Origin: an uncultured Gammaproteobacteria bacterium
GTDB lineage: Bacteria > Patescibacteriota > Patescibacteriia > UBA1558 > GWA2-36-10
DNA: 64,000 nucleotides
Assembly: GCA_964638415.1 (NCBI GenBank)
Contig: CAZWYP010000001.1
Coordinates: 148,650 to 212,649, forward strand
Direction of reading: 5' to 3'
The position numbers were made by a program, and so were the translations under genes. Numbering within the stretch: the first letter of the stretch is position 1; every line of letters begins with the position of its first letter. The notes below the pieces were generated by a model. That model had not been told where the DNA came from. It saw only the letters and a program-made list of their open reading frames with translations, and did no database searches. Shown here piece by piece: positions 9,863-55,894 of the stretch.

Positions 9863-10327
9863 TTATTCCCACTCCTTTTGCATTTTTTCCATTAATTCAT
9901 TTTCTGTAAATTTGAATGGTGTAAAACAGAGCTGAAGTGTCCGACCCTCTTTGGCAATTTTTTTTATTTCAGAATAACTTTTTTCTTTTTTGAGTAATTG
10001 GTGAATAATTTTATTTCTATTATTGTTAAATTTTTTAATTGCTTCATATCCATCCTTATTAATGCAGGATAATAGAAAGGCAATTTCAATATAATCATTA
10101 AAATATTTTATAAAATTGCCTTGATTATTTTGAAGAATTTTGATTTTTTCTATAAAATCATCTGAGGATTTTTCTTGGCTAATTAATTTGTTGGCTATTA
10201 AGCTTTTTATATGTAGCTCTAGGTAATTATGTACAAGCGAAATCACCTCAATATAGCATTTTTGTTTAACAGCTCTAGAAATTACTTCGTCAAAATTCTT
10301 CTCGTCTATTTGAAAGTCATTTTCCAT
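9863..10327 (-). CDS. Hypothetical all-alpha cytoplasmic protein with an Rx4H motif (RNKIIH), HEPN-like
   Basis: ORF track; motif lies in the C-terminal third, as in HepT/HEPN RNases; bracketed by GTTAGGCGC/GCGCCTAAC. Confidence 0.45.
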   Translation of the reverse strand: MENDFQIDEKNFDEVISRAVKQKCYIEVISLVHNYLELHIKSLIANKLISQEKSSDDFIEKIKILQNNQGNFIKYFNDYIEIAFLLSCINKDGYEAIKKFNNNRNKIIHQLLKKEKSYSEIKKIAKEGRTLQLCFTPFKFTENELMEKMQKEWE

Positions 10328-10391
10328 AATTGTTATTTAAATTTGAAATAATGGCGCCTAACCACTGTGTTGACGAACCTATTGACATCAT

Positions 10392-10405
10392 AGCCAATAT
10401 TGGCT
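10392..10405. promoter_or_regulatory. Perfect 14-bp palindrome AGCCAATATTGGCT in the divergent region between the small genes and the recombinase; overlaps a TTGACA -35 box (10382-10387)
   Basis: Read directly from the sequence. Confidence 0.5.
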
Positions 10406-10440
10406 AAAAAGTAAATAATAATCATTAATCACAATTAGTT

Positions 10441-11307
10441 ATGAAGAAAAGCGATAACACAGGCGGAAAGCCTGTAGATTTGGCTAATATCAGCAATCAG
10501 CATCCCTTGCGTTCTTTAGCTCAAGAATTAGTAATTAGGGGATTTTCTCGGCGGACAATTAAGGGTTATTTGGCATATAATCAGTCTTTCCTTAATTTTA
10601 TTGGTAAGTCAGCTAAGGAAGTTAATCAGCAGGATCTTAAGGATTATTTGTTATATCTAAAGGGTAGAAAATATAGTAATACTTCCTTGAATAATGTTAT
10701 TTCAGCCTTGAAGTTTTATTACCAGCAGATTCTTAAGAGGAAGCTGTTTTTTAATATACAGCGTCCTAGGCGGGAAAAATTTTTGCCGGTAGTTTTATCT
10801 AAAGAAGAGATTTATGCTTTACTGGCTGCTATAGTTAACTCTAAGCATAAGCTAATAATTTCTTTGGCTTACAGCGCTGGTTTGCGGGTTAGTGAAGTTG
10901 TTAATTTAAAAATTAAAGATATTGATTTTCCTAGTAGCAGTATTACTGTGCGTGGAGGCAAGGGGAATAAAGATAGGGTTACTGTCTTTTCTGAAAAGTT
11001 AAAAACGGAATTGCTAAATTTAATTTCTAACAGAGATAAAAATGATTTTGTGTTTATTAGCCAGTCAGGGGAAAAATTGACCATTCGCACTCTGCAGAAG
11101 ATTTTTGCCAGTGCGCTTATTCGTTCTGGCATTGCTAAAGCTGCGACTTTTCATTCTTTGCGCCATAGCTTTGCTACGCATTTGCTGGAAAATGGTACGA
11201 ACATCAGATACATTCAGGAGTTATTGGGTCATCAGAATATTAAAACCACCCAAGTGTATACTCAGGTGGCTAGTTGGAGGTTGAAGAATATTATTAGTCC
11301 TTTATAA
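10441..11307 (+). CDS. Tyrosine site-specific recombinase (Xer/phage-integrase family)
   Basis: SAM-like N-terminal domain; catalytic ...AGLRVSE... (Arg), HSLRHSFATHLL (His-x-x-Arg), LLGHQNIKTTQVYTQV (Tyr); 288 aa with no IntI-specific insertion. Confidence 0.85.
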   Translation: MKKSDNTGGKPVDLANISNQHPLRSLAQELVIRGFSRRTIKGYLAYNQSFLNFIGKSAKEVNQQDLKDYLLYLKGRKYSNTSLNNVISALKFYYQQILKRKLFFNIQRPRREKFLPVVLSKEEIYALLAAIVNSKHKLIISLAYSAGLRVSEVVNLKIKDIDFPSSSITVRGGKGNKDRVTVFSEKLKTELLNLISNRDKNDFVFISQSGEKLTIRTLQKIFASALIRSGIAKAATFHSLRHSFATHLLENGTNIRYIQELLGHQNIKTTQVYTQVASWRLKNIISPL

Positions 11308-11310
11308 AGC

Positions 11311-12372
11311 TTAATTAAACAAGAAATAAACCGTATCACCGTCTTGCATGACATATTCTTTGCCTTCAGTACGGATTAAGCCTAGCTCTTTTCCTTTAGA
11401 CCAGGATCCAGCTTGTAATAATTTTTCCCAATTTACTATTTCTACTCTAATAAACCCTTGTTCAAAATCCGTATGAATTACTCCCGCTGCTTGTGGAGCT
11501 TTGGTGCCGGCAGTAATAGTCCAGGCTTTAGTTTCTTCCTGACCGGTAGTAAGGTAAGTAATTAGATTAAGTAATTTATAACTGGTAGTGATTAAATTAT
11601 CCAAGCCGCTTTGGGGAATACCCAAGTCAATTAATAATTGTTTGGCTTCTTCATCTGACATATCCGCTAATTCAGATTCCAGCTTAGCACAGATGGCTAG
11701 GGAATTTTCTGGCAGATTAAGATCTTTGCCTAAATCATTTTCAGAAATATTGTAAAGGTAAATTATTGGTTTAATGGTTAGTAGATTTACCATCTTCAGG
11801 ATCTTCTTTTCTTCCGGTTGCCAATTAATGCTATTTAGCAATTGGTTGCTTTCTAAGATCTGCTTGGCTTTGATAATTAAATCCCTTTCTATTTCCGTAT
11901 TTTTGTCATGCGGGCCTTTAAGCTTGCTGTTTACCTTCTCCAAGTATTTATTGACTGTATCCAGATCGGCTAAGATTAATTCCAGGTTAATGACTGCTTT
12001 GTCATTTTCCGGATCAATAGTACCATGGACATGAATAACATCAGGATTCTGGAAATAGCGCACTACTTGGATAATAGCGTCCACTTCCCTAATATGCGAC
12101 AGGAATTTATTGCCCAAACCTTCTCCTTCGGAAGCACCTTTGACTAAGCCGGCAATATCTACGAATTCAATGGTAGTAGGGATTATTTTTTTGGACTGAG
12201 ACATCGCTCCCAGCTTTACTAATCTTTCATCAGGGACGGCCACCACGCCGACATTGGGATCAATGGTGCAGAAAGGATAATTAGAAGCATCCACTTTGTT
12301 TTTAGTCAAAGCTTGGAATAGTGTTGATTTGCCGACATTAGGCAGGCCGACGATGCCGAGAGAAAATGACAT
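11311..12372 (-). CDS. ychF: Ribosome-binding ATPase YchF (Obg-family GTPase)
   Basis: G1 motif [15 protein letters not shown]-like C-terminus; 353 aa. Confidence 0.9.
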
Positions 12373-13701: not shown

Positions 13702-15744
13702 TTGCTTATGCGCCAGATAGATTTTGCCAAGGAATTAAATGAAGAGCAATTAAAAGTGGTGACTGCTTCGGCAGGGCCACATTTAGTTTTAGCCGGAGCC
13801 GGCTCGGGCAAGACCAGAACCTTGGTTTACCGAGTAGCTTGGCTAATTAAGCAGTCAGTTAAGCCGGATAAAATTCTTTTGCTGACTTTTACCAATAAGG
13901 CGGCCAATGAGATGATGAGCAGAGTAAAAAGCCTATTGGGATTATCTCTTAATGACAGTTTGGCTGTCTGGGGAGGTACTTTTCATTCCATTGCCAATCG
14001 TTTGTTGCGGTATTATGGCGAAGCGATTAGCTTAAAGAATAATTTTATCATCGCGGATGAAGAGGACAGTAAGTCTTTGTTAAAAAAAGTAATTCAAGAG
14101 ATTTTTGGCAGTCTAGACAGCAAGCGCCACCCTTCAACTAATATTGTCAAAGAAGTAATCAGCTATGCGGCCAATGCTAGGATTAAATTAGCTGACAGCT
14201 TGGAAAAGAAATTTCCGGAGTGGTTACCTTTAGTTGGTTACTTTGAACAGATTGGGCAGGAATACAAGAAAAGAAAGCAAGCTAATAATATTTTGGATTT
14301 TGATGATCTGTTAATCTATTGGCTGCAACTGGTCAAGCACCCGGTAGTAGGAGAAAAGCTGAAGAATAAATGGCAGCATATTCTAGTTGACGAATACCAG
14401 GATACTAATAGTCTGCAGGCGGAAATAATCTACCATTTGGTCAATAAGGAGCAGAATCTTTTGGTGGTGGGTGATGATGCGCAGAGCATTTATTCCTTCC
14501 GGGCAGCGGATATCCAGAACATTCTAGATTTTCCTAAAAAGTTCAAGCAAGCCAGCATCCATAAATTGGAGACTAATTACCGCTCCAGTCCCGAGATTTT
14601 AGCTTTGGCTAATTTAATCATTGCCGCTAATGCCGAACAATTTCCCAAGAGCCTCAAAGCTGTAAATTCCAGTTTAGTTAAACCAGAGCTTTTGGCATTA
14701 CAGACTAATTTGCATGAAGCGAAGTGGATTGTTGATCGCATTATTGCTTTGATGAATGAAGGCGTGCCGGCCGAGGAAATTGCCGTATTGTTTCGAGCGG
14801 CTCACCATAGCCAAATGCTGGAAATGGAATTAAATAAGCGGGGGATTAATTACCAGATGCGGGGCGGTTTGCGCTTTTTTGAGCGGGCGCATATTAAGGA
14901 TGTAATTGCCTGGCTGAAGATTTTAGTTAATCATCAAGAGGAAATTTCCTGGTCTAGGATTTTAAATCTTTACCAGGGCATTGGACCAGCTACCGCCACT
15001 AAGATTATTTTATCGTTGAGGAATTTAAAAAGATTGTCGGACTTGCCAAAGTTATCTATTGAGTTAAGCGCTAAAGCCAGAAGTAGCTGGCAAAAGATTT
15101 TAAACACCATTGCCAATTTAGCCAGTCAGTCAGAGGGTAATCCGGCAGAGATTATTCGCCTGGCTAGCCGGGAATATGACGAATACTTGCTGGAGCAATA
15201 TCCAGATTACCGCCAGCGCCAGGATGATTTGGAGCAGTTAGCAGCGTTTGCTGCTAATTACTCTAAGCTGGAAGATTTTTTGGCAGAAGTAAGCTTGCAG
15301 GAGAATTTTAATTTGCAGAATAAGGATAATTCTGCCGCTATTGTGTTGAGTACCATCCATCAGGCGAAGGGCTTGGAATGGCAGGCGGTATTTTTGATGA
15401 ATTTAACCAGCCAGTCTCTGCCTCATCCGCTGTCGGTGTCAGAGAATAATATCGCGGAAGAGCGCCGCTTGTTTTACGTGGCAGTCACCCGCGCTAAGCG
15501 CCAGCTGTATTTAACTTACCCCTTAAGCAGCTTTAATTACCGCGGTTACCAGAGCCTGCAGCCTTCAGAATTTATTACCGAGCTTAATATCGGATTATTG
15601 TCGCTTAATCCTTTAGCGCAAGGAACAGTAGATAGTTTTTCTGCTGACCAGCAGTATGAGCAGGATGACAGCGCTGGAGATTTTTGGGACGAGGATAATG
15701 ATACCAAGGCTAAGAGTTTTCTGCCCGACATTGATGAGTGGTAG
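13702..15744 (+). CDS. uvrD: ATP-dependent DNA helicase UvrD/PcrA family (true start probably ATG 13708)
   Basis: Motif I AGAGSGKT, motif II VDEYQDTN, Q-motif, C-terminal 2B/2A motifs; 680 aa. Confidence 0.88.
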   Translation: MLMRQIDFAKELNEEQLKVVTASAGPHLVLAGAGSGKTRTLVYRVAWLIKQSVKPDKILLLTFTNKAANEMMSRVKSLLGLSLNDSLAVWGGTFHSIANRLLRYYGEAISLKNNFIIADEEDSKSLLKKVIQEIFGSLDSKRHPSTNIVKEVISYAANARIKLADSLEKKFPEWLPLVGYFEQIGQEYKKRKQANNILDFDDLLIYWLQLVKHPVVGEKLKNKWQHILVDEYQDTNSLQAEIIYHLVNKEQNLLVVGDDAQSIYSFRAADIQNILDFPKKFKQASIHKLETNYRSSPEILALANLIIAANAEQFPKSLKAVNSSLVKPELLALQTNLHEAKWIVDRIIALMNEGVPAEEIAVLFRAAHHSQMLEMELNKRGINYQMRGGLRFFERAHIKDVIAWLKILVNHQEEISWSRILNLYQGIGPATATKIILSLRNLKRLSDLPKLSIELSAKARSSWQKILNTIANLASQSEGNPAEIIRLASREYDEYLLEQYPDYRQRQDDLEQLAAFAANYSKLEDFLAEVSLQENFNLQNKDNSAAIVLSTIHQAKGLEWQAVFLMNLTSQSLPHPLSVSENNIAEERRLFYVAVTRAKRQLYLTYPLSSFNYRGYQSLQPSEFITELNIGLLSLNPLAQGTVDSFSADQQYEQDDSAGDFWDEDNDTKAKSFLPDIDEW

Positions 15745-15748
15745 ATTG

Positions 15749-15757
15749 TGGTATAAT
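15749..15757 (+). promoter_or_regulatory. Extended -10 promoter TGGTATAAT for the exonuclease-WYL gene
   Basis: TGnTATAAT motif 20 nt upstream of ATG 15777. Confidence 0.5.
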
Positions 15758-15776
15758 ATATAAACGAATAATTTTT

Positions 15777-16562
15777 ATGGATAAGGATACCATAGTTCTA
15801 GATTTAGAAACCCAGAAGACTTTTGATGAAGTCGGCGGGCACCACAACTCCCATTTGTTGGGAGTGTCTTTAGTCGGAGTCTATTCTTACCAGCGGGATA
15901 AATACCGCGGCTTTAAGGAAGAAGAATTTCCAGAGTTATTGGAACTGCTAAAAAACACCGGATTAGTCATTGGCTTTAATAGCAAGTCTTTTGACTTCAC
16001 CGTTCTGCAGCCATACTTCAAGGATTTTGATTTAAGAACTATTCCCCATCTGGATATTCTGGAAGAAATAGTTTTTGCCTTGGGCCATCGCTTGAAATTG
16101 GAATCAGTAGCCCAGAGCACTTTAGGCTATGGCAAGTCTGGCTCTGGTTTGGATGCTATTATGTATTACCGTAATAAAGATTGGGATAACTTAATTAGAT
16201 ATTGCTTGGATGACGTTAAAGTTACTAAGGAAGTTTATGACTATGGCTTGCAGCACGGGCATATTTGGTATACTACCGGGGGCAACAAGGAAAAAATAAT
16301 TGCTAGGTGGTATAAGGTGGACCGGCCAACGGTCGGTAAAATTATTACTGATGCTTTGGCTTCTGGTCAGCAATTGGAAATAGATTATATGGATGATCAA
16401 GGGCAGGTGTCTAAGCGGAAAATAGACATTCAGGCGGTTAAGGGTAATAAGGTTAAGGCTTTCTGCCATTTGCGTGACGCTATCCGTATCTTTGATTTAG
16501 ACAGGATAAAATCTGCTAAAGTAGTTGGTCAAATGACCAGTTTCCAGAAAAGTTTACTATAA
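15777..16562 (+). CDS. DnaQ-like 3'-5' exonuclease fused to a C-terminal WYL domain
   Basis: Exo I VLDLETQ, Exo II GFNSKSFDF, Exo III YCLDDVKVTKEVY; C-terminus LEIDYMDDQGQVSKRKIDIQAV...RIFDLDRIKSAKV matches the WYL consensus. Confidence 0.7.
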   Translation: MDKDTIVLDLETQKTFDEVGGHHNSHLLGVSLVGVYSYQRDKYRGFKEEEFPELLELLKNTGLVIGFNSKSFDFTVLQPYFKDFDLRTIPHLDILEEIVFALGHRLKLESVAQSTLGYGKSGSGLDAIMYYRNKDWDNLIRYCLDDVKVTKEVYDYGLQHGHIWYTTGGNKEKIIARWYKVDRPTVGKIITDALASGQQLEIDYMDDQGQVSKRKIDIQAVKGNKVKAFCHLRDAIRIFDLDRIKSAKVVGQMTSFQKSLL

Positions 16563-16784
16563 AAAAGAGGCCTAGTTGATTAGACTAGGCCTCGAACGAG
16601 TCCCTGCCCGTCAGCTCAAGGAGAATTGAGTCGAGCAAAGACTATCATGAGTGGCCGCACCACCCAGGCATTTTCCCTTAGACAGGGAGAAAAAGGTGGT
16701 GTGCCGTTGAGGGCAAGTCCGGCACACCGGGCGCATGATTTACTCCTGGGGAGAAAAGGTAAACATACGCCATTGTACTAAATC
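16561..16784 (-). ncRNA. Candidate sRNA, ~220 nt, GC-rich and structured; identity unknown (6S-like size)
   Basis: Minus-strand promoter (TTGACA at 16814-16819, 17-nt spacer, TATATT at 16791-16796) and minus-strand intrinsic terminator (9-bp stem 16567-16593 plus a U6 run); no ORF of 60 aa or more on either strand; GC far above flanking sequence. Confidence 0.4.
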
Positions 16785-16825
16785 TTACCAAATATAATAT
16801 ATTTTTTGCTTTATGTCAATAGTAA

Positions 16826-16858
16826 AAGCCCAAGTTGGTTAACCTGGGCTTTTTTTGA
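16826..16858. terminator. Bidirectional intrinsic terminator AGCCCAAGTTGGTTAACCTGGGCT with TTTTTTT; ends folD operon transcripts (minus) and plus-strand read-through from the exonuclease-WYL gene
   Basis: Stem-loop flanked by an A-tract and a T-tract. Confidence 0.7.
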
Positions 16859-16979
16859 GGTCTGACTTTGTATCCCCATGAGGAGGATTGAAAAAAGTGG
16901 TGGCAAAGTTTGCGATCTCGGCGATGGTCCAGCGGGAGCTGGGAGAGTAGAATATTCAGAGAGCTAATTATTAATTTGA

Positions 16980-17816
16980 TTATAATATATTTTTTGCCAA
17001 TTGCACAGTGTTATAAAGCAGCATAGCTACGGTCATGGGACCGACGCCGCCCGGCACTGGGGTAATATGGGAAGCTTTGGGAAAGATAGCTGAATAGTCA
17101 GCGTCGCCAACCAAATACTTATTGTCAATTTTATTGGTGCCGACATCAATTAGAATAACCCCTTCTTTAACCATGTCTTCTTTAATGAAGAAAGCTTGGC
17201 CTACTGCGGTAATTAAAATATCTGCAGTCAGAGTTTTTTCTTTTATATTTTTTTGAGCAGGTTTAATGATTTCAGTTTTTATTTTTTTATCTTGCAGCAG
17301 CTTAGCTAGCGGTTCGTAAAATACTTCACTTTTAGCAATAATAACTGCTTGCTTGTTAGCTAAGTTCTCGCCAGTAGCTTCCAGCAATTTAATAATGCCT
17401 AAAGGCAAGCCGGGAATAAAGCTGCTTTGATTATTGAGTAATTTTTTAATGTTAGCCGGATGAAAACCGTCAACATCCTTATTTGGATCAATGGCCGAGA
17501 TTACTTTGTCCGTATCCAAATGCTTAGGCAGGGGAAGCTGAACTAGAATAGCGTCTATTTCTGGATCGTTATTTAAAAATTCTATAGTCTCTAAAACATC
17601 TTTGTTTTGGCAATTCTCAGCAATTAAATATTCATGGAAAGCAATGCCGATTTTTTCACAGGCCTTCTTTTTTAAGCCGACATAGGTCTGGGAAGCCGGA
17701 TCAGTACCGACTAAAATAACGGCTAAATTGGGAGTTAGCTTTTGTCTATATATTTCCTGTTGTAGTTCTATTTGGATTTGTTCGGCTAAAGCTTTGCCGT
17801 CAATTATTTCCGCCAT
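16980..17816 (-). CDS. folD: Bifunctional methylenetetrahydrofolate dehydrogenase/cyclohydrolase FolD
   Basis: N-terminus MAEIIDGKALAEQIQ..., substrate motif YVGLKKKA, VGxSxxVGxP-like NAD motif; 278 aa. Confidence 0.9.
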   Translation of the reverse strand: MAEIIDGKALAEQIQIELQQEIYRQKLTPNLAVILVGTDPASQTYVGLKKKACEKIGIAFHEYLIAENCQNKDVLETIEFLNNDPEIDAILVQLPLPKHLDTDKVISAIDPNKDVDGFHPANIKKLLNNQSSFIPGLPLGIIKLLEATGENLANKQAVIIAKSEVFYEPLAKLLQDKKIKTEIIKPAQKNIKEKTLTADILITAVGQAFFIKEDMVKEGVILIDVGTNKIDNKYLVGDADYSAIFPKASHITPVPGGVGPMTVAMLLYNTVQLAKNIL

Positions 17817-32202: not shown

Positions 32203-33753
32203 TCAACCTTGTTTAAATTCTGCTCGATGTTTACGCCGATAGTTTTTAATGCCAAATTTATGAGCCTGGTTACGCATATGCTGTAGTAATAGGGAAATCG
32301 GGTCAGTTTTAGGTATCCTTAATGGCTGGGATTTCTTTGGTAAAAAGATCTCTTCTTCCCGCTTAGCTAAAGCAATTACTTTTTGTTTCCATTCTTTGCT
32401 AAGAATAGGATAAACAGTATTTAACTGCGGCTTGCCCCCATCTAAGACTATTAAGTCAGGTGTCGGCCAGTCCTGATGCTGCTGTCTTCTCTGTAATACT
32501 TGTTTCATCATTGCTACGTCATTAGGCTCGGTAAAGCCCCGGATTTTAAATAGCCGGTACTGGTCAGCGGCAATCTGCCCGTCAATAAACACCACTAAAG
32601 AGCCGTAAGCAAATTGGCCCTGGATATTGGAGATGTCATAAATTTCCACCCTAGCAGGAAAAGAATCAAGCTTTAGTAGTTTTTGCAAAGCTAGCAATTT
32701 ATCTAATTGTGGATTAAGGGTATTTTTATGCAGATTGTCTTCAGCATTTTTTTTAAGCAAAGCCAACAGCTGTTTATTCTTACCTATTTTAGGCAAGGAG
32801 ATTTTAATGGCTGGTAAATTTAATTTAATCTTAAGGGGAGTAATAATAGTCTTGGGCAAGTCTATTTGCCGGCTGTAATATTGCTCAAGGGCATTGGTTA
32901 AGATTTCTTCAGTGGCCAGCTTTAATTTATTGGTTAAGCGCAAAATAAATTTGTCTCCCAAGATTCCTTGGCGGATTTTCATCAAAATCACCACCGCCTG
33001 ATCTTGGAAAGCGGCAATATTAACTAAGTCCTGGTTTAACTTAGTCGGTCCAATAATCTTCTGTTTATTTTTTAGTTTAATCAAAGCTTCCAGTTGGTCT
33101 TTCTTGATTTGGGCTAATTCGAAATTGCGTTCATTACTAGCCTGCTTTATTTTTTTAAGCAATTCTTGCTCCAAAGACTGCGTATCTCCGCGGATTATTC
33201 TAATCGCTTGCTTAACTATTTTTTGGTATTCAGTTGGATTGTTTAATTCTTGGTTAAGGCCCAATCTCTGGTAGCTTAAATTCTGACTACCGCGTTTAAG
33301 AGGGAGAATGCGGTTAAGCAATTTGACTAAATTACGGGCGGCTAAAGTGGAGGAATAAGGGCCGAAATACTGGCCTTGGTATTTTTTCCGGCCATGGGCC
33401 ACTTTTAATTGCGGAAAGTCTTCCTTAGTCAGTACGATATATCCCCAGTTTTTGTCATCCTTTAAGACAATATTATATTTTGGCTGGTGTTTTTTTATCT
33501 GAGTTGCTTCCAGTAACAAGCTTTCCCATTCATTATCTACTATGGTGTATTGGATTTTAGCCACTTCCAAAATCATCTGTTGTTTAGCGGCTGTTAATTG
33601 ATTACTCTTGCTCCAGTAGGAAGCTACTCGTTTCTGCAGATTTTTAGCTTTGCCGATATAAATAATTTCTTCCTGCTGGTTTAGGAAAAAATAAATGCCG
33701 GGCTGACTGGGGATTTTATTAAGATTAAGCTTCATGAGATTATCATAGAGCAA
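32203..33753 (-). CDS. uvrC: Excinuclease ABC subunit C (GIY-YIG N-terminus, UvrBC-interacting region, RNase H-like endonuclease domain); appears to lack the C-terminal (HhH)2 tail
   Basis: PGIYFFLNQQEEIIYIGKAKNLQKRVASY GIY-YIG motif; 516 aa. Confidence 0.8.
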   Translation of the reverse strand: MLYDNLMKLNLNKIPSQPGIYFFLNQQEEIIYIGKAKNLQKRVASYWSKSNQLTAAKQQMILEVAKIQYTIVDNEWESLLLEATQIKKHQPKYNIVLKDDKNWGYIVLTKEDFPQLKVAHGRKKYQGQYFGPYSSTLAARNLVKLLNRILPLKRGSQNLSYQRLGLNQELNNPTEYQKIVKQAIRIIRGDTQSLEQELLKKIKQASNERNFELAQIKKDQLEALIKLKNKQKIIGPTKLNQDLVNIAAFQDQAVVILMKIRQGILGDKFILRLTNKLKLATEEILTNALEQYYSRQIDLPKTIITPLKIKLNLPAIKISLPKIGKNKQLLALLKKNAEDNLHKNTLNPQLDKLLALQKLLKLDSFPARVEIYDISNIQGQFAYGSLVVFIDGQIAADQYRLFKIRGFTEPNDVAMMKQVLQRRQQHQDWPTPDLIVLDGGKPQLNTVYPILSKEWKQKVIALAKREEEIFLPKKSQPLRIPKTDPISLLLQHMRNQAHKFGIKNYRRKHRAEFKQG

Positions 33754-34316: not shown

Positions 34317-37169
34317 ATGTCTAAATTCATAACGATCAAAGGCGCTCGAGTCCATAATCTCAAGAATATTGATGTTAAGATTCCGCGGGATAAACTGGTA
34401 GTAATTACTGGCTTATCTGGTTCCGGAAAATCATCTCTGGCCTTTGACACTATTTACGCTGAAGGCCAGCGTCGTTATGTAGAATCACTGTCGGCTTATG
34501 CCCGGCAGTTTTTAGGTTTAATGGATAAGCCGGATGTTGATCAAATTGACGGTTTGTCGCCAGCTATTTCCATTGACCAGCGAACTTCTTCCCGCAATCC
34601 GCGCTCTACTGTCGGTACCGTGACGGAAATCTATGATTATCTCCGATTATTATATGCTCGTATTGGCTTGCCCCATTGTCATATCTGTGGAAGTGAAGTA
34701 GTCCACCAATCTTTGCAGCAGATGGCGGAAAAAATTTGGGCCTTGCCGGCTGATACTGATTTCATGCTCTTAGCCCCAATGGTGCGTGACAAAAAAGGCG
34801 AGCATAAAAAAGCTATGGAGCGAGTGAAGATTGCCGGTTATCGTCGCGTGCGTTTGGATGGTGAATTAATGACTTTTGAGGAATTTGAAGCGCAGGAAAT
34901 AGACAAACAGAAGAAGCATACTATTGAAGTAGTGGTAGATCGGCTGCGCCAGGATGGCAGTCGGGAGACTAAAGCCAGGCTTTTGCAGTCCTTGGAAACT
35001 GCTTTGGATTTAGGTAATGGCTATATCACCATCCACACCCCTAAAGATGGTAAGGATTATAATTTCAGCGAGCACTTTACCTGTCCTAATCATGCGGAAG
35101 TAAGCTTTCCGGAAATCGAAGCGCGCAGCTTTTCTTTCAATAGTCCGCATGGCGCCTGTCCCACTTGTACCGGTTTAGGAACCAAGCTTTTGGTTGATCA
35201 GGATTTAGTTATTCCCAACAAAAAATTATCTTTAGCTGAAGGAGCAATTCGCCCCTGGTCACGGACCGCTGCTAATCAGACTTGGTATTATCGGATTTTG
35301 GAAGCAGTAGCCAAGAAGAATAAATTTTCCACTCGGCTGCCGGTAGAAAAATTAACCAAGAAGCAGCTGGATATTATTTTATTTGGCACTGGCGATGAGC
35401 GCTATAATTTAGAATTCTCGGGAGAGAAGTTTTCCGGAGATTACAAAACCACTTTTGAGGGAGTCATTCCTAATTTAGAGAGGCGTTACCGCGAGACAGA
35501 TTCCGATTATATCCGTTCGGAAATTGAGCGGTATATGCGCATTACTCCTTGCGAATCCTGCCAGGGAAAAAGGCTGAAGCCGGAAGTTTTAAGCATTACG
35601 GTAGCTAGCAAGAATATTGCCGAAGTAAGTGCCTTGACTATTGCTGACTTAAAAACTTTTTTTGCCGATATCGATAAAAAGCTTTCCGATCGGGAATTGC
35701 TAATCGTCCGTCAGGTATTAAAAGAAGTTAGAGAGCGCTTAAGCTTCCTGCATAATGTCGGCTTGAATTATCTGACTTTAGACAGATCAGCCAGCACTTT
35801 GTCTGGTGGCGAAGCGCAGCGCATTCGTTTGGCTACTCAGATCGGCTCTTCTTTAATGGGAGTCTTATATATCTTAGATGAGCCGTCAATCGGTTTGCAT
35901 CAGCGGGACAATGCCCGGTTAATTGAAACTCTGAAGAATCTCCGAGATTTAGGTAATACCGTTATTGTCGTCGAGCATGATGAGGAGACTATTTTGGAAG
36001 CGGATCATGTTATTGACATTGGTCCGGGCGCCGGCAAGCATGGCGGCGAGATTATTGCCGAAGGCACCCCGGAAGCGATTAAGAAAAATAAGAAATCTTT
36101 GACTGGCAAGTATTTATCCGGCGCTCTAGCTATTCCTATTCCTAAAAAATACCGCCAAGGCAATGGTAAGAAGCTATCTATTCTTGGCGCATCCGCTTTT
36201 AATTTGAAAGATATTGATGTGCATTTTCCCTTAGGCAAGTTTATCAGCATCACTGGAGTTTCTGGCTCCGGCAAATCTACTTTGATGACCGAGATTTTAG
36301 CCAAAGCCTTAACTCAGCATTTCTATCGGTCAAAAGATGCTCCCGCCGAGCATAAGGAAATTAAAGGCTTAGAGCATATCGACAAAGTAATTGATATTGA
36401 CCAGTCGCCGATCGGCCGCACGCCCCGCTCTAATCCCGCCACTTATACTGGTGTCTTTACCTATATCCGTGATTTATTCGCTGAATTGCCGGAAGCTAAA
36501 ATCCGCGGCTACAAAGCCGGACGCTTTAGCTTCAATGTCAAAGGCGGAAGATGCGAAGCCTGTCAGGGAGATGGCGTAGTGAAGATTGAAATGAATTTCC
36601 TGCCCAATGTTTATGTGGAATGCGAGGAGTGTAAAGGTAAGCGCTATAATAATGAAGCACTGGAGATCCATTACAAAGGCAAGGATATTGCCGAGGTATT
36701 AAAAATGACTGCGGAAGAAGCCATGAACTTCTTTAACAACATTCCCAATATTTACAGCAAGCTGAAAACTTTGGTTGATGTAGGTTTAGGCTATGTGCAA
36801 TTAGGACAGCCGGCAACGACTTTATCCGGCGGTGAAGCGCAGCGCATTAAGCTGGCTACGGAATTATCCCGCCGCTCATCCGGCAAGACTTTGTATATTC
36901 TGGATGAGCCGACTACCGGTTTGCATTTTGACGACGTCAAAAGATTATTGGAGGTTCTCCATCGCTTGGTAGATAAAGGCAATACCGTTTTGGTTATTGA
37001 GCATAACTTAGATGTTATTAAAAGCTCGGACTGGGTGATTGACTTGGGTCCGGAAGGCGGACAGCTGGGTGGTTATTTATTGGCCGCCGGCACGCCCAGA
37101 GAAGTAGCTAAAGAAAAGAAAAGCTATACCGGACAGTATCTGGCTAAGATTTTTGCCAGCAACAAGTAA
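34317..37169 (+). CDS. uvrA: Excinuclease ABC subunit A
   Basis: Two ABC ATPase modules ([21 protein letters not shown]), zinc-finger Cys clusters, signature LSGGEAQR twice; 950 aa. Confidence 0.95.
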
Positions 37170-47146: not shown

Positions 47147-47779
47147 ATGAATAAAACTATTATTGGAGTAATTATTGCCGTTATTTTACTAGGCGGCGGC
47201 TGGTGGTTAATGAGTAATAACCAACCGGCAGAACAGAACAGTCAGGTTAATGAAGAAAACACCGAATCAGCAACTATGAAAAGCTCATTAACTTCTCTGC
47301 TTAAATTAGGCAGAAATATGACTTGCACTTACCGCTATAGCGCTGAAGAAGGCGAACAGTCGGGCACAATATATATTGCCGGCAATAAAATGAGCGGAGA
47401 TTTTAATATGATGGCTGATGGCAAACCATTTGTCGGGCATATGATCCAGGATGGTGAATGGAGTTATACCTGGGGCGGTCCAATGTCGGAGAAGCAGGGG
47501 GTGAAAATAAAACTATCAGAGATTGAAGATAAGCAGTCAGGTGATGTTCCAGAACAGAGCAGCATTGATCCGGATGTTGAATATGATTATGATTGCGATA
47601 ACTGGTCGCCGGATAATGATAAATTTACTCCACCGGCTGATGTGGTTTTCCAAGACCTAAGTCAGTTAATTCCGTCCTTGCCTACCAAAGAGACTAATGA
47701 TAATTCCCAATGCGCGGTTTGTGATCAGGTGCCGGCTGGAGAGGCGCAAGAGCAATGCCGTCAGGCTTTAGGCTGCTAA
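47147..47779 (+). CDS. Hypothetical secreted/membrane-anchored protein, Cys-containing
   Basis: Signal/anchor IIGVIIAVILLGGGWWL; first gene of the NOX cluster. Confidence 0.5.
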   Translation: MNKTIIGVIIAVILLGGGWWLMSNNQPAEQNSQVNEENTESATMKSSLTSLLKLGRNMTCTYRYSAEEGEQSGTIYIAGNKMSGDFNMMADGKPFVGHMIQDGEWSYTWGGPMSEKQGVKIKLSEIEDKQSGDVPEQSSIDPDVEYDYDCDNWSPDNDKFTPPADVVFQDLSQLIPSLPTKETNDNSQCAVCDQVPAGEAQEQCRQALGC

Positions 47780-47792
47780 TTTTATAGCTAAA

Positions 47793-49097
47793 ATGAAAAA
47801 AATAAAGTTTTATTTTTTCTTATTACTGATTTCTTTATTAGTACTCTGGCCGGTGATTGGCTTGTATTTTAATGGGAGCTGGCAGGGAATGTTTGCTTCC
47901 TGGGTTAGCTTGTCTAATGCTGCGGGAAAAATTTTAGGCTTAATTGGTCTAGCTACTTTTTCCTTAGGCTTAATCTTATCTGCCCGCTTTGTTTGGATGG
48001 ATAAATTATTATCTGATTTTACCAAGATCTTGAAAGTCCATCGCTGGCTGGGGGTTATTTCTTTTTCTTTTATTCTTTTTCATCCTTTATTATTAGCTTT
48101 CAGCTTACTGCCGGCTTCCAGCCAATATGCCTGGGGACTGTTTTGGACTTGGTCCGATGCTTCTCTAGTCTTTGGTTATCTGGCTCTCTTATTATTCATG
48201 CTGCTAGTCTTGATGACTTTTTTCTGGCGCTTGCAATATGAACGCTTAAAAATGCTGCATAGCCTATTAGCTGTGCCTTTGATGCTGGGGGGTATTCATG
48301 CTTTGTTAATCGGCAGTGATGTTAAAGCACATGCTTGGCTGGCTTGGTATTATATAATTTTAATTTCTTTGGGAGTTTTGGCTTACCTTTGGCGCATCTA
48401 TACTGTTTCCTGGGGGATTAAAAGCAAGCAGTATATTATTGATGCTATTTCTCAACCGACGCCGCAAACCGTTAAAATTACTTTCCGCCCTAAAGCCAAA
48501 AGCTTAGCTGTCCAGGCTGGCCAGTTTATCTTTGTCAGCTTTGAGCAATTAGGAAAAGCTGAAGAGCATCCGTTCTCCGTGGCTGGCATTGATCAGGATA
48601 AGATAACTATTGTTGCCAAAGCTTTAGGAGATTTTACCCAGAGGTTAGCCACGCTTAAGGTTAATAGTCTAGCCATGATTGACGGCCCTTATGGTTCTTT
48701 CGGTCAAGTCAGTGAGCGCTACAAGCATCAGGTGTGGATTGCTGGCGGTATCGGCATTACACCGTTCTTAAGCTTAGCTCAGGAGTTTGCCAAGAATAAT
48801 AAACCTAATGATAAAGTGGATTTAATTTATGCCGTAGCCAAGTCTGCAGACTTTGTAGGTCTAGATAAATTAGAGCAACTAGCCAAAGCCTATCCGCAGT
48901 TTAGAGTTATCCCTTATGTTAGTGAAGAGCAGGGTAGATTAGATGTTAACCAGATTAAAAAAATAACCAATGATTTTACTGACTGTGTTTTTTGCTTATG
49001 CGGACCGCAGGGTATGGTAGCCAGCTTAGTGGCTCAGCTGAAGAAAGCTTCTATTCCCAAATCTCGTATTAATATTGAAGCTTTTGAATTATTGTAA
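47793..49097 (+). CDS. NADPH-oxidase/ferric-reductase-family flavocytochrome (TM bis-His heme domain, FAD domain, NAD(P)H domain)
   Basis: Two His pairs spaced 13 apart in TM helices (HRWLGVISFSFILFHP; HSLLAVPLMLGGIHA), HPFS FAD motif, GGIGITPF NAD motif, C-terminal CGP. Confidence 0.75.
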   Translation: MKKIKFYFFLLLISLLVLWPVIGLYFNGSWQGMFASWVSLSNAAGKILGLIGLATFSLGLILSARFVWMDKLLSDFTKILKVHRWLGVISFSFILFHPLLLAFSLLPASSQYAWGLFWTWSDASLVFGYLALLLFMLLVLMTFFWRLQYERLKMLHSLLAVPLMLGGIHALLIGSDVKAHAWLAWYYIILISLGVLAYLWRIYTVSWGIKSKQYIIDAISQPTPQTVKITFRPKAKSLAVQAGQFIFVSFEQLGKAEEHPFSVAGIDQDKITIVAKALGDFTQRLATLKVNSLAMIDGPYGSFGQVSERYKHQVWIAGGIGITPFLSLAQEFAKNNKPNDKVDLIYAVAKSADFVGLDKLEQLAKAYPQFRVIPYVSEEQGRLDVNQIKKITNDFTDCVFCLCGPQGMVASLVAQLKKASIPKSRINIEAFELL

Positions 49098-49101
49098 TTA
49101 T

Positions 49102-49566
49102 ATGAATAAGATTGTAATTATTGCCGTGTTTATTTTCTGGGCTATTGTCAGTTTTTTCTTTGTCCGGAGCTTATTTGATAAGCAACCTGAGGTTTTGCTT
49201 AATAGTACTAATAGCCAGTTGCCAGCAGAAGACGCTACTGGTCAGGCCTTCAGCGTTGATTTAGTAGCTCAGCACAATACTGCGGCTGACTGTTGGGTAA
49301 CTTATGGCAATACCGTTTATAACGTCACGGATTATCTCAACTCCCATCCTGGCGGTAGAGATCGCATTATTCCCTACTGTGGTTCAGACATTGCCGCTGC
49401 TTTTGCTGCTCAAGGACACTCTAATACTGCCACCAGTATTTTAAATGGTTTAGCTATTGGGACTATTGGTCAAATAATTTCTAATGATCCTAACACTATT
49501 ACTCCACCGCCGGTAAGTAACCCAAAGAAGGACGATGATGACGATGAAAAAGAAGATGATGATTAA
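49102..49566 (+). CDS. Membrane-anchored cytochrome b5-like heme-binding protein with an acidic tail
   Basis: HPGG motif (YLNSHPGG) and a second His in AQGHS; N-terminal TM; ORF 49075-49566, trimmed to ATG 49102. Confidence 0.7.
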   Translation: MNKIVIIAVFIFWAIVSFFFVRSLFDKQPEVLLNSTNSQLPAEDATGQAFSVDLVAQHNTAADCWVTYGNTVYNVTDYLNSHPGGRDRIIPYCGSDIAAAFAAQGHSNTATSILNGLAIGTIGQIISNDPNTITPPPVSNPKKDDDDDEKEDDD

Positions 49567-49570
49567 ATAA

Positions 49571-49600
49571 GATACCCTATAGTTTTATAGGGTATTTTTT
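49571..49600 (+). terminator. Intrinsic terminator GATACCCTATAGTTTTATAGGGTATTTTTT
   Basis: Palindrome plus T-run. Confidence 0.8.
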
Positions 49601-49608
49601 GTTATAAT
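49600..49608 (+). promoter_or_regulatory. Extended -10 promoter TGTTATAAT upstream of the beta-lactamase-like gene
   Basis: TGnTATAAT read from the sequence; similar elements at 15749, 43387 and 54725. Confidence 0.45.
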
Positions 49609-49623
49609 ATATACTGATATTTT

Positions 49624-50616
49624 ATGAATAATAATAACGAGCAAACAGCCTATTTGACTAATAAGTCAAAAACACACAAGTTAATTATATTTTTTTTGCT
49701 ATTAACCAATATTTTTACTGGGGGATGGTTTTTTATTTACCAAAAAGATCATCTAATAAACCCAAAAGAATACCCGTACATAGATGTTACTAGAAGTTTA
49801 ATTCCCCAGGAGCATTTTGTGGTTAATTTGGAGCCGCTTAGAGAAAGCTTAGATCAATTAGTTAAAGATTTTGGCGAAGATTCAGTGTCCATTTATATAG
49901 AATTTTTAAATACTGGAGCTAATATTTCAATTAATAAAGATAATTATATTTGGCCAGCTAGTTTAACTAAACTTCCGGTAGCTATGGCGACAATGAAAAA
50001 GATTGAGAAAGGGGAATGGGAATTTAATAATGAACTGGTTTTAACAAGAGAAGATGTAAATCAATTTTCCGGGGATGCTAAGGATCCCTTATCTGAATAT
50101 CCGGTGGGCAGCAGATTTACTATTCGCAAACTTTTGGAGGAATTATTAATAAATTCTGATAATACTGCTTATTATATTTTACTTCGCAATATTCATGAAG
50201 ATGAGCTGAAAGAAGTAATTTTAAATATCGGAATTGAAACATTATTTTCTCCTTCCGGCCAGATTTCATCCAAAGAATATTCCAGAATCTTTAGGGCTTT
50301 ATACACTTCCAGTTTTTTAAAGAGAGAAAACTCCCAGTATTTATTGGAAATATTAGATCAATCTGTCTTTGATGAATTTTTATCTGGCGCTGTGGCAAAA
50401 GAAATTCCTTTTCCCCATAAATATGGGCAAGATGACAAGAACAAGGCTTATTCTGATTCGGGTATAGTATATTTGCCATACCGACCTTATATAATTACGG
50501 TGATGGTACAGGGCGATCAGAATGAATCTTTTGAAAGTGAAAAAACCAAGGCGGCAGATTTTATGAATAAAGTTTCTCAGATTACTTACGAATATTTTTC
50601 TCTACAGACTAAATAA
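49624..50616 (+). CDS. Class-A beta-lactamase-like serine hydrolase, membrane-anchored
   Basis: SxxK (ASLTK), SDN (NSDNTAY), K(T/Y)G (HKYGQD) motifs; N-terminal TM. Confidence 0.65.
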   Translation: MNNNNEQTAYLTNKSKTHKLIIFFLLLTNIFTGGWFFIYQKDHLINPKEYPYIDVTRSLIPQEHFVVNLEPLRESLDQLVKDFGEDSVSIYIEFLNTGANISINKDNYIWPASLTKLPVAMATMKKIEKGEWEFNNELVLTREDVNQFSGDAKDPLSEYPVGSRFTIRKLLEELLINSDNTAYYILLRNIHEDELKEVILNIGIETLFSPSGQISSKEYSRIFRALYTSSFLKRENSQYLLEILDQSVFDEFLSGAVAKEIPFPHKYGQDDKNKAYSDSGIVYLPYRPYIITVMVQGDQNESFESEKTKAADFMNKVSQITYEYFSLQTK

Positions 50617-50618
50617 TT

Positions 50619-53600
50619 ATGTCGAAGAAGATAAAAAATATTATTAGGATATTTTCAATTACTTTTGTTTCTTTTATTTTTTTATTGACTAATGTTTTTA
50701 GCGGGCTAACCAGCTGGTTTTACGAGTATCTTAAAAACAGCAATATAGTAGATATATTATGGCAGGCTCAGCACAGTAAATCCGTAGTGGATAATTTCTT
50801 AAAGGATAACTTAACCGTAAGGCAGACTTCTGCAGCAGAAATAACAATTGAATCGGATACTACTGATGCTACTTTTGAGTACGGCACTTCTCCAGCGGTA
50901 GTCTTTACTACTGATCAGATTGGCTATGTTTTTTTTGTTGACGCTGGCAATGATCTGGTCTACAGAAAAACTACTAATGGGGGTACTAATTGGGCAGCAC
51001 CGACGATCATAGACAATGTAGTGACTGGCTGGGTTTCAGTTGCTGTTTGGTATGACCAATGGACTCCCGGAGATAGTAGTAATACCAAGATTCATATTGC
51101 TGCTTCCGATAATGCTTCTGACGATATTTTTTATACTTACTTGGACACTAACGGAGATAATCTAAAGGGTAGCGTGGTAACGGCAGTGTCGGGCTCAGCC
51201 ACTTTAACTGCTGGCGCTGACGGCCCACCCAGCATTACCAAAGGCGCTGGTGGAGCATTATTTGTATCAGGTAATTTCACCAGCACTGCCGGAGGCAAGG
51301 TTTCTAAGTCAACGGACGGCGCTGGAGATAGTTGGTCCGATGTCACTCCTTCCGGCTGGAGTTCAGTAGCAATTGACCAGATCCAATTATTACCTCTTTT
51401 AACTGGAGATGACATCATAGCGATTAAAGCAGAAACTGCTAATAATGCCATAAAATACCAAATTTACGATGAAACCAATGATCAATGGCCAGCCTCCTGG
51501 AGTAATATTGCTACACTAACCGAAAACACCACCTATGATCAATGGTTTTCCGCTACCATCAAGAAATCCACTGGCGATGTTTATCTGACTTTTGCTAATC
51601 AGACAGCCAATGCTGCTAATGATATTGAATTCTGGAGCTTTGATGAAAGTAATAGGGGTAGTGGCTTTGTGAAAGGCACTAACAATGTTTATGATAACAG
51701 CAATTTGATTATTTCCCCAGTGCCCTTAACAGATGAAAATACTGGAGATATTTATGTGGCGTATATCAGTGGAAGAATTCAAGGAACGATAGGTGCGGTA
51801 ACTCATGTGTTTTATAAAAAATCTACTGACGGCGGCAATACCTGGAGTAATGAATACGGTAATATCAATAACGATGTTGGTGATGACTACCGTTATTTGA
51901 GAGGCAATTTATTAAGTAGTGATCGCTTGTTTATTATTTATCACGATGATGATGACAATGATATACTTGGTACTACGATTGAGTCTCAGGATACTACCGT
52001 TGAAGCCAATGTAGATACTGCCATTATTGATGCTACGGATGAATATGGGCCATCACCATCAGGGGTGTTCACTACGGAAGATGTTGGTTATAAATTTTTT
52101 GTAAAAACCAATACTGTTTTGGATGGCACTGATGAATTTGGCCCATCACCGTCAGTGGTTTTTACAGATGCTAATACTGGCTATGCTTTTTTTGTTAGCG
52201 CTGTTAATCAGGATTTAGTTTACGCCAAGACGATTAATGGCGGAGCCAATTGGAGCGGACAAGTGATAATTGATTCAGCAGTTGGTGGCTGGACAATGGC
52301 TTCTGTCTGGTACGATCAGTGGACGCCGGGGGATACTACTGGAACCAAGATTCACATTGCTGCTTCTGATGATGTGTCTGATGACATTTACTATACTTAT
52401 CTGGATACTAATGGTGATACTTTGAAGGGTAGCGTGGTAACGGCGGTTTCAGGGTCAACTACTTTAACGGAAGCAAGCGACGGTCCACCCAGCATTACCA
52501 AAGGCGCTGGTGGGGCATTATTTGTATCAGGCAATTTCACCAGCACTGCTGGAGGCAAAGTTTCTAAGTCAACGGACGGTGCTGGAGATAGTTGGTCCGA
52601 TGTCACTCCTTCGGGCTGGAGCTCAGTAGCAATTGACCAAATACAACTACTGCCGTTGTTAACTGGAAATGATATTATGGCGATTAAAGCCCAGACGGCA
52701 GATAACACTATTAGATACCAAATTTACGACGAAACTAATGATCAATGGCCAGCCTCCTGGACTAATATTGCCACTTTAACTGAGAACCTTACCTATTACC
52801 AATGGTTTTCTGCTACCATCAAGAAATCCACTGGTGATGTTTATCTGACTTTTGCCAATCAGACAGCTAATGCTGCTAATGATATTGAATTCTGGAGCTT
52901 TGATGAAAGTAATAGGGGCAGTGGTTTTGTTCAAGGTGCTAATATATTTACTGATAATGCCACCGTTATTTCCCCAGTCCCTATCATAGAAGAAGATACG
53001 GGTAATATTTATGTAGCTTATATCAGAGGCACGTTAAATGCTACCGTGAGGGTTTATTATAAAAGCTCAACTGACGGCGGAGCTAATTGGGGCAGTGAGT
53101 CGTCCAGTGTTAGTCCGACTACTGCTGATGATCATAAGTACTTAAGAGGAAATATTCTTAACAATGATACTTTATATGTCGTTTGGTACAATGACGATAC
53201 TAATATCCTAAGGGGGAACTCTCTTTTGTCACCAATCGCTACTGATGTGCCTTTGACCGGTCAGTCCATAGCTTTTAGAAAGACTACCACCGGCGGGGCT
53301 GCTTGGGGGACTTTGCGTATTTTAGCACCAGGTTTAGGCGCCACCATGGTTTCTGTCTGGTATGATCGATGGACGCCTGGGGACACCACTGGAACCAAGA
53401 TCCATGTTGTTTATTCTGATGATGTGACTGATGATTATTATTATACTTATTTAGATACCAATGGCGATGAGATTGGCTTTAATAAACCAGTAATTTTAGG
53501 ATCAGCTATTACTGAGTTGGGTGTCGGTACGCCAGGTATTACCAAAGGCGCTGGGGGAGCTTTATTTTTATCTGGTCAATTTAATACTACTGCCGGAGGC

Positions 53601-55270: not shown

Positions 55271-55286
55271 AATTTTTACGATATTA

Positions 55287-55889: not shown

Positions 55890-55894
55890 TTTTA

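Follow-up and report, generated by a model that had tools for sequence, protein, structure and literature searches.

An exonuclease-WYL fusion protein encoded beside a UvrD/PcrA-family helicase: a possible DNA-repair exonuclease in a lineage-specific gene block

When a gene for a nuclease with a putative sensor domain lies directly behind a helicase gene, do the two products work as a dedicated pair, or were the genes simply inherited side by side? The question is raised by a 64,000-nucleotide stretch of contig CAZWYP010000001.1 (the window, meaning this whole stretch), which belongs to a genome of the candidate phylum Patescibacteria, where a gene for a UvrD/PcrA-family superfamily 1A (SF1A) DNA helicase is followed on the same strand by a gene for an exonuclease fused to a WYL domain (exo-WYL). 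An earlier note on this DNA had described the second gene as a DnaQ-like exonuclease-WYL fusion with its own promoter, and had suggested a damage- or signal-gated nuclease-helicase pair, either a repair accessory or an anti-phage module. Both open reading frames (ORFs), the helicase gene at 13702 and the fusion gene at 15777-16562, are present as it had described. Our best reading, based on sequence comparison, is that the exo-WYL gene is chromosomal, vertically inherited and of housekeeping type. We lean slightly towards regarding its product as a DNA-repair exonuclease with a single-stranded DNA (ssDNA)-binding WYL domain, while a specific functional partnership with UvrD, though plausible, appears doubtful.

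Exonuclease and WYL domains

The fusion gene comprises the following features.

15777-16562, + strand: exonuclease-WYL fusion gene, 261 amino acids (aa) (ORF, Pfam, AF2 model)
15777-16301, + strand: predicted DEDDy 3'-5' exonuclease domain, residues 1-175 (PF13482, motifs, Foldseek)
15801-15803, 15807-15809 and 15993-15995, + strand: codons of the predicted catalytic residues D9, E11 and D73 (motif alignment)
16200-16202 and 16212-16214, + strand: codons of the predicted catalytic residues Y142 and D146 (motif alignment)
16332-16532, + strand: WYL domain, residues ~186-252, predicted Sm-like β-barrel after one helix (PF13280, profile, Foldseek)

The start codon was taken to be ATG 15777 rather than GTG 15738, as is common to the homologues. 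Profile searches place both domains above the Pfam cut-offs, in agreement with the composition proposed before: PF13482 (RNase_H_2) matches residues 30-156 (E = 4.2e-11, 43.5 bits against a cut-off of 22), and PF13280 (WYL) matches residues 189-249 (E = 6.8e-9, 36 bits against 21.8). No NCBIfam model matches the protein. The three exonuclease motifs that had been pointed out (DLE, FD and YxxxD) are present as D9-L-E11 (Exo I, DxE), N68-x3-F72-D73 (Exo II, Nx3FD) and Y142-x3-D146 (Exo III, Yx3D). Nineteen aligned homologues all keep D9, E11, D73, Y142 and D146, and the same pentad, together with K120, is invariant in 140 of 140 family representatives of all architectures; the four acidic metal ligands and the tyrosine general base are thus present with the correct spacing.

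The designation DnaQ-like holds at the level of the superfamily and fails at the level of the family. PF00929 gave no match to the exo-WYL protein at E ≤ 1, nor to 24 relatives at E ≤ 0.01, and the general base is tyrosine instead of histidine, for which reasons membership in the DnaQ/epsilon family was rejected. The 24 sampled family members match PF13482 (24/24), PF10108 (PolB-exo-like; 23/24) and PF01612 (PolA-exo/RNase D type; 12/24). On these profile and motif grounds, we assign the exonuclease to the polymerase-proofreading-type DEDDy/PF13482 branch. The AF2 model of exo-WYL (pLDDT 91.2, pTM 0.87) points in the same direction: in Foldseek, the N-terminal half of this predicted structure matches the exonuclease domains of T7, RB69, Tgo, KOD and Pol epsilon at a probability of 1.00. 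The best profile matches among PDB sequences are weak, namely T7 DNA polymerase (E = 0.0026) and Pol delta (E = 0.0036). The proofreading domains of family A and B polymerases (T7 gp5, RB69, Tgo/KOD, Pol delta/epsilon and E. coli Pol II) share the Exo I/II/III motifs and the fold. Unlike them, the exonuclease of exo-WYL is a free-standing 175-residue domain with no polymerase, and the invariant K120, located in a conserved G-K-S/T-G-x-G-L motif, is a feature of this family rather than of polymerase editing domains. A metal-dependent 3'-5' exonuclease activity is predicted.

In the AF2 model, the WYL barrel has five predicted strands over residues 198-252 (pLDDT ~90). The C-terminal ~65 residues retrieve PafBC (6sj9, E = 1.8e-4), the WYL chain 7tb5 and PafC in the profile search against PDB sequences, and Foldseek matches the barrel to PafBC, CapW (7tb5, P. 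aeruginosa) and BrxR at a probability of 1.00. The WYL signature residues Y204, R214, C230, H231, R233, R237, F239 and R243 are conserved in most of 34 exo+WYL representatives (R214 in 22, C230 in 25, R233 in 21, R237 in 23 with lysine in another five, and R243 in 23). The eponymous W-Y-L tripeptide reads V-K-A in the window protein, V/I-K-A being the replacement. Basic residues and a cysteine lining the ligand groove are the diagnostic WYL pattern of Makarova et al. 2014 (PMC4012209), and exo-WYL keeps it in R214, R233, R237, R243 and C230. Of these, R237, in an R-x-F-x-(L/I)-x-R-I strand, aligns with the arginine of the CapW 'FRDF' strand, which contacts ssDNA; mutating such residues abolishes signalling (PMC11662680).

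Exo-WYL has the Pfam WYL domain as well as an Sm-like barrel in common with PafBC, DriD, CapW, BrxR and the accessory WYL of bacterial PIF1. PafBC, BrxR, CapW and DriD are transcription factors built of a winged helix-turn-helix (HTH), a WYL and a WCX domain, whereas here the WYL domain is fused to an enzyme. Neither HTH nor WCX is found in exo-WYL, since the exonuclease occupies the N-terminus and the protein ends ~10 residues past the barrel; the protein is therefore not a WYL transcription factor. The published WYL ligands are ssDNA for CapW, PafBC and DriD (PMC11662680, PMC11804915, PMC9186387). By analogy with these proteins, the barrel of exo-WYL most likely binds ssDNA, and would act as a tether or an activator rather than as a small-molecule gate. 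The ligand-sensing gate that had been proposed is accordingly recast as substrate tethering or ssDNA activation, the published WYL ligands being single-stranded nucleic acids.

The neighbouring helicase and the linkage of the two genes

The helicase gene and the short spacer behind it show the following features.

13702-15744, + strand: UvrD/PcrA-family SF1A DNA helicase, 680 aa (Pfam, NCBIfam, motifs)
15655-15744, + strand: UvrD C-terminus, an acidic tail ending ...SFLPDIDEW (tail motif comparison across 36 loci)
15749-15757, + strand: extended -10 element TGGTATAAT, 19 nt ahead of the ATG within the 32-nt spacer between uvrD and exo (sequence, conservation)

The helicase matches the Pfam models UvrD-helicase (1.2e-79), UvrD_C (1.5e-60) and UvrD_C_2 (5e-13), and its translation keeps the SF1 motifs intact (GAGSGKT, DEYQD, GDDAQSIYSFR, YRS, TIHQAKGLEW and VAVTRAK). 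It is not assignable to a specific orthologue, because its bit scores stay below all three NCBIfam equivalog cut-offs (PcrA 490 against 911, UvrD 409 against 1144, Rep 404 against 951). The match to the PcrA model stops at residue ~637, and what follows is an acidic peptide specific to the lineage. In this clade, the UvrD proteins (loci L001-L037 and L048) lack the region past PcrA model position ~640, and ~31 of 36 end, after an acidic linker, in [FY]LP[DSE][VI]x[DEN][WL]-COOH. This terminal peptide resembles the C-terminal docking tails of the SSB type, and the exo-WYL protein is one candidate for its partner.

The linkage was followed through 80 species-level genome loci fetched around exonuclease homologues, among which 38 have an exonuclease domain at least 66% identical to that of the window protein ("close" loci). 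In 35 of these 38, a UvrD gene precedes exo on the same strand; it is directly adjacent in 21 (spacers of 20-140 nt) and separated by at least one ORF in the other 14. The remaining three close loci are two truncated ones and one (L038) without UvrD. The usual block in the close clade reads YchF (-), UvrD (+), exo (+), FolD (-), GlyA (-), ELP3 (-), and across loci whose UvrD is 47-61% identical, the exonuclease domain is 66-87% identical. The record titles of L006, L011, L016, L022-L025, L049, L057 and others read 'uncultured Gammaproteobacteria', 'Pseudomonadales' or 'Promethearchaeota archaeon'; many loci with such odd titles show a Patescibacteria-type gene order, and the bins are probably mislabelled. 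Taxon names from these records are therefore unfit for claims about distribution.

Several observations weigh against a dedicated pairing with UvrD. No UvrD was found within 6 kb at any of 10 informative, more distant exo+WYL loci or of 23 informative loci with the exonuclease only. Since the adjacency sits within a larger conserved block with frequent insertions, it carries little functional weight: the genes inserted between uvrD and exo encode a riboflavin kinase and, as judged by eye, a pilin-like protein, a NUDIX protein, a large Cys-repeat secreted protein and others, none of them repair-related. L036, L038 and L040 retain YchF, exo and GlyA-ELP3, UvrD having been lost from the block. 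Other lineages have unrelated housekeeping genes next to exo (SOD, NUDIX, SufBCD, PNPase, DoxX); one lineage has a DeoC-like aldolase, SOD, exo and NUDIX, with PNPase and SufBCD seen by eye farther out, and another has DoxX, exo and PF04308. Finally, no fusion of UvrD to the exonuclease occurs among the best 150 family representatives. From these comparisons we conclude that uvrD and exo lie side by side through synteny inherited within a Komeilibacteria-like clade and do not form an obligate or family-wide module. The co-occurrence with uvrD across genomes, which the earlier note had proposed to check, extends to 35 of the 38 closest loci only, within a housekeeping block and with interruptions in 14; outside the clade, the picture is largely that of a housekeeping orthologue without helicase linkage, which the earlier note had named as grounds for giving up its proposal.

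A different arrangement appears in the Kerfeldbacteria-like loci L041 (~430-1198), L043 and L047, where a ~250-aa Cas4/AddB-like PD-(D/E)XK nuclease (PF12705, 1.9e-37, with a C-terminal Cys cluster) lies directly upstream of exo+WYL at gaps of -8, +60 and -52 nt. The two genes probably form a two-nuclease operon in these loci. A conserved partner for the distant lineages was considered and rejected, as the neighbours (SOD/NUDIX/Suf/PNPase, DoxX/PF04308 or Cas4-like nuclease/LCP) vary by lineage.

The extended -10 promoter proposed earlier is borne out by its conservation. The pattern TGnTAnAAT stands just upstream of the exo start in ~17 of the 24 closest loci, mostly as TGTTATAAT, while the rest of the spacer diverges; it is also kept in L009 and L011, where another gene is inserted upstream. 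Its chance expectation is estimated at ~0.01 per 90-nt AT-rich spacer. Sequence conservation therefore supports a separate promoter for the exo-WYL gene. With the -10 element 19 nt before the ATG, the leader would be very short or absent. An own conserved promoter also means that exo-WYL is not strictly co-regulated with uvrD, which makes the operon argument weaker.

The exonuclease family is large and is present in Patescibacteria-type contigs. A word-indexed search returned 1151 homologues of exo-WYL; the top 120 are 58-80% identical and ~260 aa long, the named ones being Komeilibacteria, Parcubacteria or Patescibacteria. An exhaustive profile search over representatives of 50%-identity clusters gave 3292 at E ≤ 1e-3, 1399 at ≤ 1e-10 and 333 at ≤ 1e-30. 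Architecture classes were drawn from the best 150 representatives (151 sequences once the window protein is counted): 69 consist of the exonuclease alone (~190 aa), 37 are exo+WYL, and ~40 carry N-terminal extensions. The domain is found on its own throughout Patescibacteria. The long forms (920-1000 aa) consist of DEAD, Helicase_C, WHD_HRQ1, MZB (the MrfA Zn-binding domain) and RNase_H_2, that is, they are MrfA-type superfamily 2 (SF2) helicases with the DEDDy exonuclease as the C-terminal domain (P0199, P0226, P0233 and P0235), and their exonuclease domains are 38-44% identical to that of the window protein. One cluster of such fusions is annotated as coming from Candidatus Aerophobetes. Neighbour-joining orders the family with exo+WYL and stand-alone forms mixed together on one side, and with MrfA-fused and stand-alone forms mixed on the other. 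Beyond the exonuclease domain, MrfA similarity is absent from the window and from the 80 related loci. A UvrD::exonuclease fusion as Rosetta-stone evidence was rejected, the fusions seen joining MrfA; by this comparison of sequences, the family-wide helicase association is with MrfA, not with UvrD.

Function and alternative explanations

Three other repair genes are encoded in the same 64-kb window.

745-1758, + strand: RuvB
32203-33753, - strand: UvrC
34317-37169, + strand: UvrA

The presence of UvrA, UvrC and RuvB implies that the organism has canonical nucleotide excision repair, in which UvrD is the expected helicase. These genes, and the fusion of homologous DEDDy domains to MrfA repair helicases, point towards repair. 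We infer a DNA rather than an RNA substrate, ssDNA binding by the WYL domain, and cooperation with UvrD. In such a scheme, exo-WYL would trim or degrade 3'-ended single strands arising from excision repair or end processing, which a 3'-5' helicase would have displaced. As the helicase supplying the ssDNA, the neighbouring UvrD/PcrA is the evident candidate in this lineage; in other phyla, where the homologous domain is fused to MrfA-type helicases, it would be MrfA. The WYL barrel would tether the protein to its ssDNA substrate and raise affinity or processivity, or would switch the activity on when ssDNA appears; the lowered activity of MrfB upon deletion of its accessory domain is an analogous effect. 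Of the damage- or repair-related nuclease-helicase pair envisaged earlier, the repair flavour survives through UvrA, UvrC, RuvB and the MrfA fusions, and the dedicated, co-evolving pair does not, given the distant loci described above.

MrfA and MrfB form a helicase-exonuclease excision-repair pair in B. subtilis, for which fused forms have been reported (bioRxiv 10.1101/426304; 10.1101/2025.09.15.676423). Like exo-WYL, MrfB (YprB) is a small RNase-H-fold DEDD 3'-5' exonuclease with a C-terminal accessory domain, which in MrfB boosts activity; its core resembles family-B polymerase editing domains and has a long alpha-C helix, and deleting its TPR domain cuts the activity ~tenfold (PMC11194089). 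MrfB cooperates with a 3'-5' helicase whose gene lies just upstream, and helicase::exonuclease fusions exist, as they do for homologues of the exo-WYL exonuclease domain. YprB is presumably itself a member of Pfam PF13482, the family matched by exo-WYL. However, MrfB is a DEDDh enzyme (His258; PMC11194089), whereas exo-WYL and all 140 relatives are DEDDy (Tyr142 in exo-WYL), and so are the exonucleases fused to MrfA-type helicases. The accessory domain of MrfB is a TPR and that of exo-WYL is a WYL domain, with no TPR match, and the partner of MrfB is the SF2 helicase MrfA, while exo-WYL has the SF1 helicase UvrD as its neighbour and no MrfA nearby. An elaborate combination of these likenesses would have the Komeilibacteria-like clade exchange, in an MrfB-like DEDDy exonuclease, the TPR for WYL and the SF2 helicase MrfA for the SF1 helicase UvrD. 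The outcome would be a so far undescribed, ssDNA-gated excision or strand-removal pathway, in which WYL allosterically licenses the nuclease only on helicase-made ssDNA and the UvrD peptide [FY]LP[DS][VI]x[DE][WL] docks the exonuclease; we regard this scheme as a long shot.

In mismatch and excision repair of E. coli, UvrD (SF1A, 3'-5') unwinds the nicked strand, which is removed by ExoI or ExoX, DEDD 3'-5' exonucleases that recognise ssDNA. Unlike exo-WYL, these are DEDDh enzymes of the DnaQ type, unlinked to uvrD and without WYL. Fusions of WYL to a '3'->5' exoRNase' and to SF1 helicases were already listed by Makarova et al. 2014 (PMC4012209). The exonuclease-WYL architecture and the MrfA::exonuclease fusions are thus known, and the DEDDy/WYL subfamily has no characterised member in the literature.

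Some points count against a DNA-repair role. RNases such as RNase D and NrnC are DEDDy enzymes too, and among WYL proteins there is one, WYL1, that binds RNA. The PDB profile matches at E ≤ 10 did not include the solved MrfB chain of B. subtilis (two profiles, the presence of the chain in the searched set being unchecked), so that any homology to the characterised MrfB is probably distant. An enzyme directed at RNA, i.e. an exoribonuclease or nano-oligonuclease of the RNase D/NrnC-like DEDDy kind whose WYL domain binds single-stranded RNA and which serves RNA turnover in reduced genomes without Orn or RNase T, is one alternative. It would agree with the match of half of the sampled members to PF01612, which covers RNase D and WRN-type exonucleases, with a weak PDB profile match to an 'ancestor of diDNase' chain (E = 0.06), with the NrnC-like size of the ~190-aa stand-alone form, and with the position of PNPase in one lineage, at a distance of two to three genes. 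The fusion partner was named an exoRNase by Makarova et al. (PMC4012209), and WYL1 of Cas13d systems is an accessory protein of an RNA system (PMC5935466). Nevertheless, the nearest relatives with several domains are joined to MrfA DNA-repair helicases, the best matches in fold and sequence are proofreading domains of DNA polymerases, DNA enzymes are the neighbours in two lineages (UvrD and the Cas4-like nuclease), and the best-studied WYL ligands are ssDNA, so we consider an RNA enzyme unlikely. The same resemblance to family A/B editing domains could instead indicate a trans-acting proofreading subunit, a free exonuclease that edits 3' mismatches for a polymerase lacking an editing domain while WYL anchors it on template ssDNA. 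A match to the PHROG 'DNA polymerase exonuclease subunit' (1.3e-11) and one homologue named 'DNA polymerase III epsilon subunit-like' by one source fit this idea, but no polymerase gene was recognised beside exo in the lineage-specific neighbourhoods examined, the fusions in the sampled representatives are to helicases rather than polymerases, and similarity to PF00929/epsilon is absent; such a role seems improbable.

An anti-phage or abortive-infection module, in which phage DNA ends or a nucleotide signal would be sensed by a GajB-like UvrD and a nuclease under WYL control, with degradation of DNA as the response, is highly improbable in our judgement. Gabija (GajA-GajB) likewise has a UvrD-like helicase beside a nuclease gene, and WYL domains often occur in regulators of defence (PMC4012209). 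The PADLOC scan, which covered the helicase and exo-WYL proteins, matched solely helicase models of the GajB/RTasHel type (GajB at 3.8e-95) and, at the C-terminus of exo-WYL, WYL models of CRISPR- and DRT-associated proteins. The GajB matches reflect generic UvrD similarity, however, and GajA is an OLD/TOPRIM nuclease, while the window encodes a DEDDy exonuclease in a housekeeping, syntenic context. Neither a GajA/OLD nuclease nor any other defence gene is adjacent (Pfam and ORFs of the neighbours; PADLOC on the two proteins), the flanks YchF, SDR, FolD, GlyA and ELP3 belong to a block conserved over dozens of species, conservation is very high with a pattern that looks vertical, exo-WYL lacks the HTH of a WYL regulator, and 50,697 phage and 72,556 plasmid records contain no full-length relative. 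The defence reading was rejected on these grounds, and with it the anti-phage half of the original proposal. More weight, though still tentative, goes to a DNA-repair exonuclease functionally unrelated to UvrD, working alone or with another partner such as an MrfA homologue elsewhere in the genome, the adjacency being historical. The conserved promoter of exo-WYL, the insertions between the pair in 14 loci, the three loci whose block has lost UvrD, the distant exo+WYL loci without it and the family-level fusion to MrfA all speak for this possibility. On the other side stand the same-strand, same-order adjacency in nearly all close loci, with short spacers in 21, the lack of an MrfA gene in the window or any of the 80 loci, and the conserved C-terminal peptide of UvrD, which has no assigned partner.

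Downstream spacer, surrounding genes and significance

Two hairpins follow the exo-WYL gene.

16567-16593, - strand: perfect 10-bp GC-rich hairpin, 5 nt past the exo-WYL stop (T-run on the minus strand)
16824-16860, + strand: hairpin then TTTTTTT, the first canonical plus-strand terminator after exo-WYL (sequence, inverted repeat, aligned terminator stem)

The nearer hairpin scores as an intrinsic terminator of the minus strand, the plus strand having no U-tract. The second hairpin is the first plus-strand terminator, in line with the earlier note (16826-16858). It may be bidirectional and also end the folD operon on the minus strand. The spacer between exo and folD (16563-16980) measures 417 bp in the window, compared with 0-382 bp, mostly <170 bp, in relatives. 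It harbours a GC-rich structured element of ~200 nt (core 16594-16790; fold z = -6.2 on the minus strand and -3.8 on the plus strand), bracketed on the minus strand by a promoter-like TTGACA-17-TATATT (16819..16791) and the intrinsic terminator (16593..16567). No Rfam family matches the element on either strand, no homologue occurs in the 80 related loci, and the metagenome collection does not contain a 20-mer of it. At 16793-16809 and 16981-16997 lies an exact 17-nt direct repeat, TATAATATATTTTTTGC, whose second copy forms the 3' terminus of folD, stop codon included; this suggests that the ~188-bp segment between the copies stems from a duplication or an insertion. The '-10' of the putative minus-strand promoter falls within the first copy. 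The structured element may be a lineage-specific small RNA or the remnant of an insertion.

The window as a whole is a chromosomal segment of ~40% GC with housekeeping gene content, namely RuvB, UvrC, UvrA, RNase J, GroES/EL-like ORFs, PEP synthase, YchF, FolD, GlyA and an ELP3-like radical-SAM protein. The pair is flanked by YchF, SDR, FolD, GlyA and ELP3, the block being kept in dozens of species; an 84-aa barrel protein and the SDR are, beside exo-WYL, the neighbours of the helicase (ORF list, Pfam). A tyrosine recombinase (Phage_integrase with a SAM-like N-domain) and an adjoining 154-aa ORF without a Pfam match lie at 9863-11307, in the stretch of lowest GC (0.339 for 10001-12000); the recombinase could be XerC/D or mark the edge of an integrated element. 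Farther away, ORFs that look like those of secreted or membrane proteins cluster at 47147-59560, one of them for a 1355-aa protein, and precede a 715-aa ORF (60752-62899, + strand) with no Pfam match at E ≤ 1e-5.

The locus does not represent a new class of system, since its combination of domains already appeared in the 2014 listing and the link to the helicase amounts to synteny within one lineage. Patescibacteria have tiny genomes in which, to our knowledge, few DNA-repair exonucleases can be recognised. This role may be filled by a polymerase-type exonuclease that is strongly conserved and found alone, fused to WYL or fused to MrfA. The contrast between fusion to MrfA and adjacency to UvrD leads to testable hypotheses on how helicase-exonuclease repair pairs are assembled, and the WYL fusion offers a clean natural test of WYL as an ssDNA tether or switch on enzymes beyond transcription factors. 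Exo-WYL is a good biochemical target for studying WYL as an enzyme module and DNA repair in reduced genomes.

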